A stretch of DNA of 64,000 bases from Raillietiella orientalis (lineage: Eukaryota). The stretch covers positions 1,736,001-1,800,000 of the forward strand of contig JAYWIR010000030.1 in NCBI GenBank assembly GCA_036172245.1. Direction: 5' to 3'. How positions within the stretch are numbered: the first letter of the stretch is position 1; the number at the start of each line of letters is the position of its first letter. The notes beneath the pieces were generated by a model that was not told where the DNA came from, did no database searches, and saw nothing but the letters and a program-made list of their open reading frames with translations. Below, piece after piece: positions 3,092-18,430 of this stretch. The position numbers and the translations under genes are program-made.

Positions 3092-3187
3092 CATTGTCAT
3101 CATCTTCAGCATCATCATCTGTATCTGTACTTCTACTTTTTCCCATTTGAGTTAGCTTTTTTCTTTTGGCTGCAGCTCTTCTTCTTG
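3092..3187 (-). CDS. cac: Cav2 exon, I-II linker
   Basis: Reads RRRAAAKRKKLTQMGKSRSTDTDDDAEDDDN, a cac-like basic then acidic stretch. TTTTAG acceptor, GTAAGG donor, phase 1/1. Confidence 0.93.
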
Positions 3188-3582: not shown

Positions 3583-3642
3583 TTTCTAAAATATGCAGCT
3601 TTTCTTCCTCTGTTGTTCTTTCTTCTGACAAGATAACTTCTT
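3583..3642 (-). CDS. cac: Cav2 exon, I-II linker after the AID
   Basis: Reads EEVILSEERTTEEEKLHILE. TTTTAG acceptor, GTAAGT donor, 60 nt, phase 1/1. Confidence 0.95.
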
Positions 3643-4132
3643 CTAAAAAATGTAAGAAAGCAAAAAATATGATTCTGAGTTTTTTAATCAAATAATTAAA
3701 TGTTCAAATAGAAAAAAATGGTAAATAGCCGAATGAAAACAAAATGCGAACATACAGATAAAATGCATGGGAATTGAAAAGACGAATTCACATGCATTTC
3801 CCAAAATCATTCTGTGGAGGGATAGTAATTCAGTGCACATGGTTGTCACAAAAAACATCATACTCCATAAATGAATATATAGCATTAAAACCAGTAATCA
3901 AACAAGAAATTCTAAAACAAATTTGTCAAGTACTGGGAGTAGTTTCTTATTCTAGCATGTATAGTTAAATGTGAGAAGGAATGAATTTTTAAAATAAACA
4001 CATAAATTTGCATGCAATGTCAATTCTTCATGAAAATAAAACATCATGTAATACAATTATAAAATGATACAAAGCGATCCAGTTCAGAGAAACTTAAGCA
4101 AACAGGAAAGAATATTCCTGTTATTTTAATAC

Positions 4133-4248
4133 CTGCTTTACAGATCCATTCTACATAACCATTCAATTCTTTTTCTAGTTGTTGCTGTCTACGTAATTTT
4201 AAAAAGGTCTGACGATTTTCAACTTTCTCTCTTTCCTTGGCGAATTCC
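4133..4248 (-). CDS. cac: Cav2 exon encoding the alpha-interaction domain (AID, beta-subunit binding)
   Basis: Reads [38 protein letters not shown], containing the QQxExxLxGYxxWI AID motif. AG acceptor, GTATT donor. Confidence 0.98.
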
Positions 4249-4621
4249 CTTTAAAATATAACTGCTAATCAACATATATAAACTCCAAAAAAAAGAAAAA
4301 ATTAACATTAAAATTGATAAGCAAAAATACCAAGTACATAAATCATAAAAAGTTACATGGTAGTATATTACATGATCCCTCACTAAAAAATAACCAATAA
4401 AACATGATTCTTGATCACATTTTCTGCATACCAATTTTCTGTCTGCAATAATCGTCATGAATTTAAAGAACAGTCTTAAACTGGTTGAACAAAGTCTAAA
4501 ATGCACATGCTGAAGACCAGTCAGATTCGTGTGCATGCTGTTATTTATGAGAAAACTTTTGTTAGGTTCCTTGTACTATATAAAAGAAACACTAAACCAT
4601 AAATGCTTCTTTGATAATGAT

Positions 4622-4652
4622 GAGAAAGAATGAAAAATCGTCAGACTTTTTA
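4622..4652 (-). other. Intronic element complementary to AID-exon nt 4200-4229 (candidate ECS or splicing duplex)
   Basis: Plus strand GAGAAAGAATGAAAAATCGTCAGACTTTTTA versus exon sense GAGAAAGTTGAAAATCGTCAGACCTTTTTA. The inverted repeat is directly visible; the function is inferred. Confidence 0.6.
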
Positions 4653-6008
4653 CTGTATTGTATTTTTATAACGTCCACGAAATATTTCGATTTCGACTCT
4701 TCGAAATATCAGTTGATTTCAATATTCTAGTTATCTTTAACATGATGATATTATTTCAGAAATACCGGAAAATAATTTGCTTATTAGGCCTTCACAGAGA
4801 AAAAGTTTTGCATTACTTTAAATATGGATCAACTCAATAAAATTCATTTCAAATATCCCCAGTGTTGTTGAACACATGGCTTCTCATCAGAGAATTGTTA
4901 GACAAATTTACTGTATTACAAGATAGGAAATAAACAAAACGCTGTTCTTGAATATTTGCCATTTAAGCGTATAATCATTAAGGGAAATGTGAAAATTGGG
5001 AATTTATTGCTTTTTTTTCCTTTCTAGATCATCTGAAGTTTCTAGCACTTCATTTCTTTAAGTACAAAAAGAAATTACTGGAATCAACAAATTAATTACA
5101 TAATAAGCAATTATATATCTGTTTTTAAATATTCTTGGAAAAAAGCATCAAAGCCTTTGGAAATAAAAATGTCATTCGTTAATAAAATACATATGCATCC
5201 AGTAAAACATTAAACAAATTATGCAAAAAATACAAACTAATACTACTGAACATTGATGAATGAGAGAAAAATGGCAAATACAAAAAACTTATTCTTACAT
5301 TAGGACAAAAAAATTCAAAGTTTGGGATCGGGATTTAATTCAGTTTTACAATATTAAAAGTAAAATTAATTTGCAAATTATGTGAATAATTATTTTTGGA
5401 AAAGAAAAACTACTTTCAGAACAGAATCATATTGTATATAATTATTATATTACAAAATATCACTCATTAACTACATTTAAAATTTAATTTCCATTACTAA
5501 ACTTATACAGCCTAATGAAACTTGATTTTCAGTGTTCTGGAAGATGACAGTGATGCAAATGGAAATTTCGAATTATTAAAGAAACTCGACATTTCCCCTA
5601 GTAATTTCCTGTGAATGAACAAGATTTTATAGGTGCGGATGACCCAAAGAAAAATCTTTTCAATTGTTTCATTTCGTAGTCAGGCATTTAATATTGGTAA
5701 TTTTCCAAAATTTAAATTTCTTCAATAGGGAGGTTTTCATGAACTTTCTTCCTGCATTGTGGTTTATCATGTACTCTTAGCTTATGTCATTTGCACCAGA
5801 AGTAATGAGAAAACCACAAACTATTTTCCATTTCAATATTAATGATCAGCTTCACTCGATATTAAATAAAACAAACTACAATCTACTCACTCAATGTATC
5901 ATGCTGACTGTTTATATTAAATAAAACCAAATGCATGTTATTTCTCAAATAAATATTCACTCATGAAATTTAATGGCAAACAGGAAGTATCAAAGTTCTC
6001 TTTCTTAC

Positions 6009-6112
6009 CCACTTAAAACGCCAAGAACCAGATTGAGCATGAAAAAGGATCCCAAAACAATGAGAGGTACAAAATACATCCAATTAAAAGAACTACCAAG
6101 AGCATCATTTGT
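6009..6112 (-). CDS. cac: Cav2 exon, repeat I S6
   Basis: Reads [41 protein letters not shown] acceptor, GTAAGA donor. Confidence 0.98.
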
Positions 6113-7072: not shown

Positions 7073-7207
7073 CTAGAAGAATACATTGTTGATGATGATG
7101 AAAATGAACACATACAAAATAACTCAAATCATCACATAAATACTGGGGAAAAGGCATTAAATTTATACATAAGTTTACTCTATACATTATTCAGAAACTT
7201 GCAGTTA

Positions 7208-7381
<174 letters not shown>

Positions 7382-9945
7382 TCAATTAAGGAGAATATAC
7401 GAAACGATTTCTAGAAAGCATAGGCAATTTGTCTTTCCATTGAGTTAATTAAATCGTTGTGCCCATAAAACTAGTATTTTGTGAGTATGGGCAAATAAAA
7501 GTAGTAAAACACTTACCATAATTTCTTTTATTGGATGTCTCAGCTTTAAGGTCATGCTTTATGGGTTATGCTTTTAAATGATCGATAGTTATAGTTCATA
7601 CTTTTGCTTTCAGAAGTAAGAAATGATTCAAATTTTGTACATTGTTAAAAATTAGTGCACTACAAATTTGAAGTCTTTCAAGAAATCAGTCAAGAATAAC
7701 AGCAATCAACTATTTTAAATTTTGCCAGGACTTATCGAAATAAAGCAGTCTATACTTTCAAGAAAACTTAAAAAGATAAGCAAAAGAATCCAAGGATTTC
7801 AAAACAGACAAATTCTCCCCCTTCAGACATCATTTCTTTAATAGCATAATCAATTTTTCGCCTACACACAGTCTTTTGCAACACTTCAGATCCCATATTT
7901 TGCTGGACTCAGATCCTTAAGTTAGAAATTTTTAAATGTCATTGTTAATGTAGCTGTTATCTTGTTTCATTGAAGCCATTACTCTTTATGTATCTGCTGT
8001 TTTGTGATGAATTTAAGAATAATTTTGTCTGGCCTTAATACATTGTTCTGACAATTACATTTAGCCTCATAAACAAAATGCGAAATAATTAATTGCAATA
8101 ACTAAGACTGAGAAATTAAAGGCCACAATAAGGTACATTTTGAAAAATCTTACAATAATGAAATTATTATAGGAATTGTAAGATTTTTAAAAATAATCTC
8201 ATTAATAATTGCAAATATTAATGATTCTGATTCAAAAACCCACCCTGATGTGATACTCATATGAAGGAAGTAAATGCTACAGCCCAACTCACTATTCACC
8301 TAAGTCCTTGGCCTCATGATCCCCACTCATTAGGCTCTTTTATCTAAATGTGTATATACATGCCTGTAAATATAAAAAAACACATTTACATATACGATAC
8401 ATGTCTGTGTACATAAAACTCGAAATTGAATGGTATCACATGTTGCAGCTGTTGAGTAAGCAAGCAAAATTTTTAGTTATGGAATTCTTTTACCTAATTC
8501 TTCTTCCATTGCATTTAAAGTCTGATTGAAATTCCAACATTTTTGATCAAAGTGTTCTTATTTTGAACAACCTGATCTTTTCAACAATTAGCATGTTTTG
8601 TGTTATATTTCTGGTACAGATATTTGGACAAAAATGCACAACTCTGCATCCGAATGATTGCTCGAATTGAAAATAAAAAGACGCTATTTAAGGAATCAAT
8701 GGAGCGGAATCACCAGATCTTTATAAGCACTGAAGACAAATGAATGCGCAAAATTTGCATAACAAGAAACTCATGAAAAAGGAACTCAGTGTTGAAAACA
8801 AAGTTAAAATCAAGGCAAAAAGCAAAAAAAACTCCACCCAACAAAGAAGGCCAGAAAATTAGAACTAAATAACTTTCTTGAAATTAATGATCTGAGTGTG
8901 GATCCCTTTGATGAATTAAGAAATGGGTTCCAAATACGGAATACAAATAAGTTAAACTCGTAGATCATTTCTGCATTCTTGCAGGGGAGCTTCAAAATTG
9001 AAATGACACCCCTGTAAGTTACAATATAATGAACAAAAGTTAATGGAAAAATATGGGTATCCTACGGAAAAATTATGCTCCAGAATTGCCTCTACATTTG
9101 ATGACCGTTAAATGGGGGTGACAGGAAAGTCTTATGGAGAAAAGCATATTTATCATAGTATTACTATATCATGTTTATGTCTTTATAAATTTAAGATTGT
9201 TTATACACAAATTCAATTAAACATGGATTTAATAAGCACACCATTCCAAACATTTGTTGGAAAGATTGTGGACTTTCTCTAACATTGCTAAGATTTAATG
9301 ATTTCATGGTAAACACTGCATGAAAATCTACCTTCCCAGAAGATACTGCAAATGCCTAAGAAAAGCAAAGCAATAAAAATGACTTTCATTATCTTTCGAA
9401 TTGAAATTTAAAGCTTAAGCAATTTTGTGTTTTTTCAAGATCCTTCACAGAGGATCATATTCCAAGTGTTCTCAAGATTGAATCCTAGCAAGTAGAAAAG
9501 AAAAATGAAAAGCCTATCAGCACTATCTTGAATAATTATTAAAATATCAACTAGAAACCTATAAACGAACAATACTATTAGCAACCTTAAACTTTAATAT
9601 TAGAATGATGAAATTAAAAATAATTGTTGTCATACATACAATAATTTGAAAAAGTAACTTCAGCATGTGCTGGAACATAGCAAATGTAATAAATCAAAGA
9701 GAAGCACGTATGCAAAGAACAAAAGCCTATTTGACACTTGGATTAAACTGAATTTCCACAAAGTTTACATATGTATGATTAATGCAACATATCACTTACA
9801 AGAGTAAAACAAAAAAAAACCAGTACACAACTTAGTTTTAATTTTAATAACAAACAATTGTTACTATTGTAGACTGTTCTCATATGTCTGTTCAAATGCA
9901 TTTGAATAATCTGATGAAAACGCAAATGTAAAAAAAATAACTTAC

Positions 9946-15535: not shown

Positions 15536-15641
15536 CAGTTTTAATGCAAGCAAAGTCTTGTCCCCATGGGGAAGGTGTTCTTCAAGAGCCAAAACGATGC
15601 AGTTTGCAATGATAGTCATAAGGACGGCATATTCAAAGGGA
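15536..15641 (-). CDS. cac: Cav2 exon, repeat I S1
   Basis: Reads (P)[35 protein letters not shown]. Non-canonical AC acceptor at 15643-15642, GTAAGT donor. Not in the ORF track. Confidence 0.97.
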
Positions 15642-18217
15642 GTAAAGCAAATTAAGGATAGACATTTTGTCCAATCACATACAAATTAAGAATTCATGTA
15701 CACAGAGTTCTCTGAGCAGGGAAATCAGCCGATATTAAAAGCGTACACAATACATCAGCTGATTAAATTGTCAGCTTAAAATTCCTATTCTGCAATTCAG
15801 TGCTTCTCTTCCGTACTAATTGTTTTTTTGGCAGAAAAGAGGTTGAAAAAAAGGAAAAAAAAAAATGTGACAGCTGGTTGTTGCATCAGTTGCATGACCT
15901 GAAAATTCAGGGATTCGTTTGTTGCAGCAACAAAATAAATGAAGAGAAGCACGTTGTTTTGATGTACCAAAAGTGTATGTCAGAAATTTTTCATAATGAA
16001 GCGATCTTTCGATTTGTTTAAAAATCACCCAGAGAGAAAACGGCGTGATTCAAATCACAAAAAACCGAATGCAGGATGGTTCTGCGAATAATCAAAGTGG
16101 CCACTTTCAACGAAGCGTCTGCTAACAAATGAAGCTCCTCCGGTTCTCCTCAAAACCACGTCTACACGATGTGAGAAGATGAACTCAACCACGGAAAGTG
16201 TGAAAGAGGTTCACCGAAAGACAAACATGAATGAACTTTGCTGAGCGCCAAAAGTGAAGATGGTGACTGATGAGGATCGTCTGAGTTAAATGGATGATTA
16301 CGCTCGAGTAAGTGAATTCAGGTGACACTTGAGTGAAAAATCTCATTTCTGTAAACAGTTGCCTGACACTGATTAATGGATTGTTCAAAAAATTCCGGAG
16401 CCAATAGACTCGAGATGGCAATTTAATTAGTTGATGCCCTAGCTGAATGGGAAGCGCCCACAGAAGTACGGAAATCAAAACTAATTGACCGCTTTTATTG
16501 CAAGTATGATGTAGCCATCCATCTAATTAAAATTTCAAGAACTGCCAAGAAATGGTTAAACGAACCAGATCTGGAAAGATATTAAACTTTAAAGAGCAGC
16601 ATCGAATCCGGAGTATTGATTTGAAAGTGCACCTTGGAAACTAATCTTATCTGTTGCCAATCTTTAATATTAGAAATTGGGAGATGTAAGAGGACATTCA
16701 GGGATCAAAAGGTCACTCTTCTGAAAACCAACAAGCTAAACTAAACTCTTGAATGAAGCGCCTAAAGATACAGAATGTAAGCCATATTGTGTGTATTGAA
16801 AAAACAGCTGGAATGGTGATCCCACTGGCAATAAACGAGGCCTTCTTGAATGTTGACAATTTCACGAGGCAATTACCGCCTGAATAAAAGCTGTTAACTT
16901 TCCACCAGTGCGAATCAGTGTTTGATCATGAAAGATGAAACTTTCCATACTGGAAATTAAAATGCCGACTACTTAAGCACTTGCATTATGCTACAAGCAG
17001 AGGGCTGATGCAACCGGAGACAGAAGCATAAACAGAAGGATTACACAGCCGTGGAGGAGACCTCCAGCCCTAAACTGATGCCTAGTTTTCACGAATTTAA
17101 CGCACCGAATTGCAGCAGAGCTTGCGACGTGCATGCACGAGTCAGCAATGCGTCAAGCTCTCAGATGGACCACCCCGTGTACACCGATTCGGGTTGGTCG
17201 AATTTTTATTTATTTATTTATGGAAGTATCTCTATTTTTTATTTTTTTATAAAAGCGCTATTGGTGTGGAACTGGACGGAACGGAACAGCAAGACGGGAG
17301 AGAGCGATTGCTATGCACTTTGAAAGAAAATGAAAGAATGGATGCAGGTTGTGGAAGACCAGTAGGGGTCCGCGTTAATCATGATGCCTCAATCACTGTG
17401 CAGATTCACACCGAATGCTGCAATTTCTGAAGACGCTCAGTCGCACCGAAGGACAGCGCTACAAACGAATGGAAACTGCAAGTTGGCGAGGGCAATCGAG
17501 TCAGCAACTTTTACATGCTTTGGCATCCAGAGACGTGCACGTAAGAAACATGCATGTTTCTTATTTGGACACTGTTGCACACTACGATCAAGTGAGAACA
17601 CAGAAAGGAACCCCCTCCCTCCCTCCCCAAGGAAAAAAAAAAAAAAATCGGAAGCATACTTTTGAAGGCCTGCACAGAAAATGCGTTACGAACTTTGGGT
17701 AGAGGGAACGAATTTCCGGTAATCATGCACATGATGGAACAACGAGGAGTGGTCCACACAACGCCCAGTGAGTCAAAAATCGCCTCTGGAATCGGATCTT
17801 TCCTCCAAAGCGTGCTTCCCTTTTCTCGGAAATGGGGAGCACGAAAACACAGTTTTGAATAAATTTTCTTCCAGAATGAAAAAAAGGAGGGGGGAGGGGG
17901 AAGAAAAAAGGCAGGAAAACTTTGCTACGCTTCGACGTCTCTTGATTGGCTTCACGGTACGAATGCCAAGGAAACCGTACACAGGGACACAGGAGAAGGC
18001 TGGTGTCGGCGGTGCTCGAGCGTACAAGTGACATTTCGGTGGCATCGTAGCGTCAACTTGGATTTCGCGATCGCATTTGCTCTCCAGCTGAGACAGACAC
18101 GCGAACAACAGCATGCACGAATCAATTCAAGCACAAACCGATCTTCGGTTTCATTTTCAAGACATCAGAGAATTGCAGCAATTTCGCAATGAAACAGTCC
18201 CACGAAAAAAAGGATAT
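15642..18217 (-). other. U12-type (minor spliceosome) AT-AC intron
   Basis: 5' end ATATCCTTT at 18217, branch site TCCTTAAT at 15658-15651, 3' end TTTAC. Removing it restores the conserved IIEWPPFEY. Confidence 0.96.
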
Positions 18218-18430
18218 GGCCATTCGATGATGAATCGCGTGTACTTTCGGATGCGATTGCTGTCGCTGAAGATGAACAAGGAACTCGGCATCTTTTCGTT
18301 CTGGGATTCTGTTCTCCGTACACCGAAACCTCCCGTTGTCCTTTGCCGTTGACTTAAATTGCTCAGTCCGAACAGCCCTCCATCCTGAGCGGCTTTCTGG
18401 GCCTCTACTTCGGCCGTGATTGCCGTCAAC
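18218..18430 (-). CDS. cac: Cav2 exon, cytoplasmic N-terminus
   Basis: Reads LTAITAEVEAQKAAQDGG...MPSSLFIFSDSNRIRKYTRFIIEW(P); the SLFI...N.IRKYTRFIIEWP part is cac-like. Acceptor TCTGTCAG at 18432-18431 (phase 2). The 5' boundary is less certain than the 3' boundary. Confidence 0.9.

Follow-up and report, generated by a model that had tools for sequence, protein, structure and literature searches.

The duplex that can form between the AID exon of a cacophony-like calcium channel gene and the intron upstream of it is probably a fortuitous, lineage-specific complementarity and not a selected regulatory element. The match is real and compact; nevertheless, in a gene with a GC content of 28%, it is not clearly distinguishable from chance. 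Since the helix is within the range of chance and none of the orthologues examined has it, we infer no selected function for it. Such a match may have arisen by chance where a purine- and A-rich exon segment met a T-rich intron in a gene of this composition. If the helix has any consequence, this would most likely be opportunistic, low-level A-to-I editing by ADAR before the intron is removed, for which the candidate codons would be AAU (N to S or D), CAG (Q to R), and AAA (K to R).

Gene and exon structure

The window, i.e., the whole 64-kb stretch of DNA that was analyzed, carries on its minus strand a gene which, as judged from its translated exons, is that of a Cav2/cacophony-like alpha1 subunit. 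Readable exons with canonical splice sites were found for IS1, IS2-3, IS4, IS5, the pore loop, IS6, AID, the I-II linker, IIS1, and IIS2-4. The pore-loop exon used as a query returned 1313 protein matches with a best identity of 75%, and the matches listed were arthropod Cav2/cacophony proteins, with one tapeworm fragment as the sole exception. This best identity and the arthropod matches suggest that the organism is arthropod-like and that it had no close relative among the proteins searched. The exons and the intron around the duplex are as follows.

3583..3642, minus strand: exon next downstream of the AID exon in the mRNA (EEVILSEERTTEEEKLHILE), from translation and splice sites
4133..4248, minus strand: AID exon of the Cav2/cacophony-like alpha1 subunit, 116 nt, 38 aa, from translation, splice sites, and a match to the arthropod Cav2 peptide
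4249..6008, minus strand: intron between the IS6 exon and the AID exon, 1760 nt, containing the intron arm of the duplex
6009..6112, minus strand: IS6 exon, the upstream neighbor of the AID exon in the mRNA, from translation and splice sites

The acceptor of the AID exon ends in TTTTAAAG and its donor begins with GTATTA. The product of this exon comprises the IS6-AID linker and the beta-subunit interaction domain, and the same peptide is present in arthropod Cav2 proteins. The sequence-only reading was correct about the anatomy: it gave the right strand and codons, placed these in the IS6-AID linker, and expected editing to appear as plus-strand T>C.

The base composition of the window is uneven, with a GC content of 28-30% in the gene body (1-12 kb) versus 52-65% at approximately 18-30 kb; the jump begins at exon 1, and the GC content is 44-59% thereafter to the end of the window. 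The GC-rich part contains long stop-free frames on both strands, among which no gene was recognized by eye, and searches of this part revealed no tandem repeats, Rfam matches, or tRNAs. Across the whole window, Rfam at gathering thresholds and ARAGORN each gave 0 matches.

The intron between exon 1 and the IS1 exon (15642-18217, minus strand) resembles a U12-type AT-AC intron. Exon 1 ends in GAATGGCC at 18218, the putative intron starts with ATATCCTTTT at 18217, and a TCCTTAAT branch-site motif at 15658-15651 is located nine bases upstream of the TTTAC at its 3' end; the IS1 exon begins at 15641, and joining of the two exons across this intron yields EWPPFEY. Minor-class introns are known at conserved positions in voltage-gated channel genes.

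The intron-exon duplex

An inverted-repeat search identified arms of 30 nt at 4202-4231 and 4622-4651, with an ungapped complementarity of 80% and a spacing of 390 nt. Gapped pairing of exon positions 4200-4234 with intron positions 4616-4652 gave helical segments of 7, 13, and 6 bp separated by a 3x4 internal loop and a bulge of 1 nt, and an energy of -32.1 kcal/mol over 35 and 37 nt. The parts of the resulting compact, helix-like structure of approximately 26 bp are listed below.

4200..4234, minus strand: exon arm, ten codons between IS6 and AID, from the inverted-repeat search and gapped pairing
4207..4219, minus strand: exon half of the exact 13-bp core (RNA AAAAUCGUCAGAC), from sequence complementarity
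4616..4652, minus strand: intron arm (candidate ECS), which in the RNA precedes the 3' splice site by 373-404 nt
4634..4646, minus strand: intron half of the exact 13-bp core (RNA GUCUGACGAUUUU), from sequence complementarity

The paired exon segment is GA-rich, and the adenosines of the exon arm in the RNA correspond to plus-strand T at 4200, 4208, 4210, 4216-4219, 4224-4226, and 4228. Deamination would convert N to S at 4216 and to D at 4217, Q to R at 4210, K to R at 4225 and to E at 4226, E to G at 4219 and 4228, and T to A at 4208, and would be synonymous at 4200, 4218, and 4224. The 3' splice site of the AID exon (4248/4249) sits between the two arms in a loop of approximately 390 nt, which also takes in the branch region and the exon's initial 17 nt. 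An inverted repeat between 4622-4652 and 4200-4229, with a 13-nt core and flanks of 7 and 6 nt, had been claimed from the letters alone, and the repeat search and gapped pairing bear it out. The further claim that this repeat would form an imperfect duplex of approximately 26 bp looping out the 3' splice site was confirmed at the level of sequence complementarity and predicted folding.

Folding models predict that the two arms pair in the pre-mRNA. In a 491-nt fold, the helix was present in both the minimum free energy (MFE) and centroid structures, with the 7-bp flank paired in the former; this fold had a z score of -2.48, and 2 of 100 shuffled sequences folded as well. The mean pair probability of the 13-bp core was 0.82 in contexts of 491, 801, and 1401 nt, and that of the 6-bp flank was 0.89-0.94 in the same contexts. 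A substrate of ADAR would be expected to consist of imperfect double-stranded RNA of roughly at least 20 bp between an exon and a nearby intron, and the predicted helix has these features.

Comparison of the duplex with chance

Taken as a single pair, the AID exon and its upstream flank match better than most shuffled sequences. When the upstream intron was dinucleotide-shuffled 2000 times, an exact 13-nt complement appeared in 16 of the shuffles, and the Watson-Crick-only score of the pair was matched by 5 of 400 shuffles, a repeat run giving p = 0.025; the per-pair p value was, therefore, approximately 0.01-0.025. A local score that tolerates wobble pairs was reached or exceeded in 140 of 2000 dinucleotide shuffles of the intron. 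When real 116-nt tiles of the gene body were used in place of shuffles (n = 121), only the tile of the AID exon found a 13-mer within 1760 nt upstream, and its wobble score was reached in 16 of the 121 tiles. Among 22 exon/flank comparisons, the AID duplex also had the longest contiguous Watson-Crick helix (13 bp, versus 11 bp or less in the others). RNAduplex applied to the whole intron gave sprawling duplexes and was unusable as a statistic.

The test across the whole gene is the relevant one because any exon could have been picked. With 21 exon/flank pairs shuffled jointly, a Watson-Crick local score of at least 22 occurred somewhere in 55 of 400 trials and an exact complement of at least 13 nt in 69 of 400, corresponding to a family-wise p value of 0.14-0.17. 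The 21 pairs showed no gene-wide excess of exon-intron complementarity (Fisher's combined p 0.34), with a median p value of 0.53 and 2 of the 21 pairs at p<0.05. The upstream match of the IS6 exon (p 0.010) was nominally better than that of the AID pair (p 0.025). Judged against shuffled sequences, the match is unusual for the single pair but not for the gene as a whole, and the complementarity is only weakly non-random.

Predicted energies and folds point in the same direction. Against 60-nt intron windows, RNAduplex gave energies that matched or surpassed that of the AID flank duplex (-33.6 kcal/mol) for 7 of 10 other exons. In partition-function folds in full context, 3 of 11 exons were predicted to pair at long range with intron sequence over at least 11 bp, at a mean pair probability of 0.69 or more, namely, the pore exon (11 bp, 0.98), the linker exon (16 bp, 0.69), and the AID exon (11 bp, 0.91). 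The AID duplex, therefore, resembles chance long-range complementarities in AT-rich introns, as comparable helices and energies occur at other exons and 14-17% of gene-wide shuffles yield such a match; it differs from these in having the longest perfect core (13 bp, versus 11 bp or less) and the most compact geometry.

Two other complementarities in the gene were inspected individually. That of the IS6 exon (6032-6092 with 7523-7586) had a score of 19 versus a shuffle mean of 12.9, and its intronic part is situated beyond other exons. For the linker exon (3113-3168 with 3705-3769), the p value was 0.095, and the predicted helix of 16 bp, comprising Watson-Crick and GU pairs, had a pair probability of 0.69. 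Both are loopier than the AID duplex.

Comparison with orthologous loci

Metagenome contigs were scanned using the stop-to-stop frame containing the AID exon as the query, and 17 orthologous AID-exon loci were obtained. Fourteen of these were genomic with AG/GT borders, 13 of which included upstream sequence, and all were distant at the nucleotide level. In the other three (L009, L016, and L017), the AID exon is directly flanked by the coding sequence of the neighboring exons, and these loci resemble spliced transcripts, not genomic DNA. Against genome and viral contigs, the same query gave matches (L018-L020) confined to the intronic tail of the frame.

No equivalent duplex was found upstream of the AID exon in the 13 distant arthropod loci that extend upstream of it. 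Exact complements between the exon and its upstream region did not exceed 10 nt in these loci, the best shuffle counts being 27/300 and 41/300, and the 13 core nucleotides differed at synonymous sites in every orthologue examined. Since all of the orthologues are distant, the lack of a duplex in them is weak evidence and argues only against an ancient shared element. In a near-identical pair of ant-like loci (L013 and L014; AID peptide ending in NCYLNWICKA), we observed an 11-nt exact complement approximately 1360 nt downstream of the AID exon, which pairs the downstream intron with the purine-rich start of the exon and was equaled in 9/300 and 3/300 shuffles, respectively.

Alternatively, the intron arm may have been left behind after a short stretch of the exon was duplicated in inverted orientation. 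In support of this, positions 4616-4652 on the plus strand resemble the exon as read in its sense orientation, and tblastn aligned ERMKNRQTF with EKVENRQTF. However, the similarity between the arms ends beyond approximately 36 nt, the 60-nt flanks on each side were no better than shuffles (562/1000 and 510/1000), and no other copy was found within the 64-kb window. We consider this origin to be highly improbable.

Possible role in RNA editing

Besides para and Shaker, the Q/R and R/G sites of mammalian GluA2 are examples of editing directed by exon-ECS duplexes, and editing sites in cac were reportedly listed by Smith and colleagues in 1998. The mechanism invoked in the sequence-only reading, editing guided by an intronic ECS, is well established in kind: according to Yablonovitch et al., 2017 (PMC5691062), the editing of prominin requires an intronic ECS almost 1 kb from the exon and is abolished by its deletion, and cac has several recoding sites. 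Its premise that Drosophila cac is edited also holds, as table S4 in Yu et al., 2016 (PMC4965139) gives 8 coding sites for D. melanogaster cac, comprising R>G, N>D, N>S (three sites), E>G, S>G, and I>M.

As in the exon-ECS duplexes of Drosophila prominin and cac, an exon here is predicted to pair with an intron segment a few hundred nucleotides away in an imperfect helix of approximately 26 bp, and the setting is again the pre-mRNA of a presynaptic ion channel. The present duplex differs from those in being a candidate identified from sequence, in the intron arm not being conserved in the orthologues examined, and in lying within family-wise chance.

It is possible, albeit rather unlikely, that the intron arm is a selected ADAR ECS that directs the deamination of one or a few adenosines and thereby recodes the IS6-AID linker; the resulting changes, for instance N to S or D, Q to R, or K to R, would alter the coupling of the beta subunit to the gate. 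An imperfect duplex of approximately 26 bp with an intron arm approximately 390 nt away fits known substrates, the modeled pair probability is high, the pair is rare when taken singly (p approximately 0.01-0.025), and none of the other comparisons among the 22 gave as good a contiguous helix. Genes of this class are known ADAR targets, with cac being recoded at the 8 D. melanogaster sites in the table referred to above. Furthermore, other animals encode R at the K and Q positions (ERER and NRR), which editing of AAA and CAG would mimic.

Several observations argue against a selected ECS. The family-wise p value is 0.14-0.17, and the distant orthologues lack an equivalent duplex. The exon adenosines of the helix are all opposite U, none of them in an A-C mismatch, and several are preceded by G, a 5' neighbor that ADAR disfavors. 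The D. melanogaster sites in table S4 also fall elsewhere. Seven of the eight cac sites are annotated in all 15 isoforms in this table (Yu et al., 2016; PMC4965139), and since the AID exon of Drosophila is mutually exclusive, these seven must lie outside that exon; the remaining site is I>M, a change that requires an isoleucine codon, of which there is none among the ten orthologous codons. Therefore, all 8 D. melanogaster cac sites in this table lie outside the ten orthologous codons, which weighs against a selected ECS at this position.

Possible role in splicing

A role of the duplex in splicing is another possibility: with the purine-rich 5' part of the exon held in the helix and both the branch region and the 3' splice site looped out, recognition of the AID exon would be modulated. 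Consistent with such a role, the loop contains the 3' splice site together with the exon's initial 17 nt, the paired segment is GA-rich, and many arthropods have the homologous exon as a member of a mutually exclusive pair. Bell et al., 2025 (PMC11828482) describe a mutually exclusive pair of I-II exons in Drosophila, and the AID exon occupies the same position as this insect cac I-IIA/I-IIB pair, which is mutually exclusive in Drosophila and many arthropods. Among the matches listed, an alternative EFSNER-type exon was present in 14 of 120 proteins. We also noted that, among the matches listed, the I-IIA type of exon was found in insects and a shrimp.

A search of the window for a second AID exon by tblastn, using the B-type peptide together with eight orthologous I-II exon peptides (seven A-type and one B-type), returned only 4134-4247 with either exon type. 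By the same method, both mutually exclusive exon pairs of Drosophila cac are missing here, with one AID exon in 3643-6008 and one IS4 exon in 7073-9945.

In Dscam exon 6, competing RNA structures formed by a docking site and selectors choose among mutually exclusive exons. The present duplex resembles structures of this type in being a long-range pre-mRNA helix next to an exon. It differs from them in that the AID exon is single, one arm is exonic, and there is no second selector. Control by competing structures needs tandem homologous alternative exons, which the window lacks, and a docking site and selector that are both intronic, whereas one arm here lies inside the exon. Moreover, the AID exon is 116 nt in length, such that skipping it shifts the reading frame, and the family-wise frequency of chance matches (55-69/400) applies equally to a role in splicing. 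Since the AID exon is single and of this length, regulated skipping and a selector-type or inclusion-control role are unlikely, and the suggestion from the letters alone that the duplex may control inclusion of the AID exon is weakened. We regard a regulatory role in splicing as very unlikely.

Implications

A fortuitous, lineage-specific complementarity remains the reading that we prefer, although some points speak against chance: the rarity of the match for its own pair, its longest helix among the comparisons, the uniqueness of the 13-mer among the tiles, the predicted formation of the helix, and a gene class known to be targeted by ADAR. The duplex is also of cautionary value. By chance, a gene with a GC content of 28% yields a perfect 13-bp core between an intron and an exon, together with a high predicted pair probability, in about one gene fragment in six. 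As chance cores are this common, RNA or comparative support is needed before such arms are called ECS elements.

The duplex may, on a tentative view that we hold to be unlikely, direct ADAR to a recoding site that is specific to this lineage and lies in the rigid IS6-AID linker, the guide being an intronic ECS 390 nt upstream. Our literature search found no report of A-to-I tuning of this kind for this segment of the Cav2 I-II linker. A true ADAR substrate here would add a recoding site to the segment that links the beta subunit functionally with the pore gate in a presynaptic calcium channel. The editing of AAU, CAG, or AAA would then replace N, Q, or K within the helix relaying beta-subunit binding to the S6 gate, and editing in the IS6-AID linker would be a means of tuning the gating of presynaptic calcium channels.
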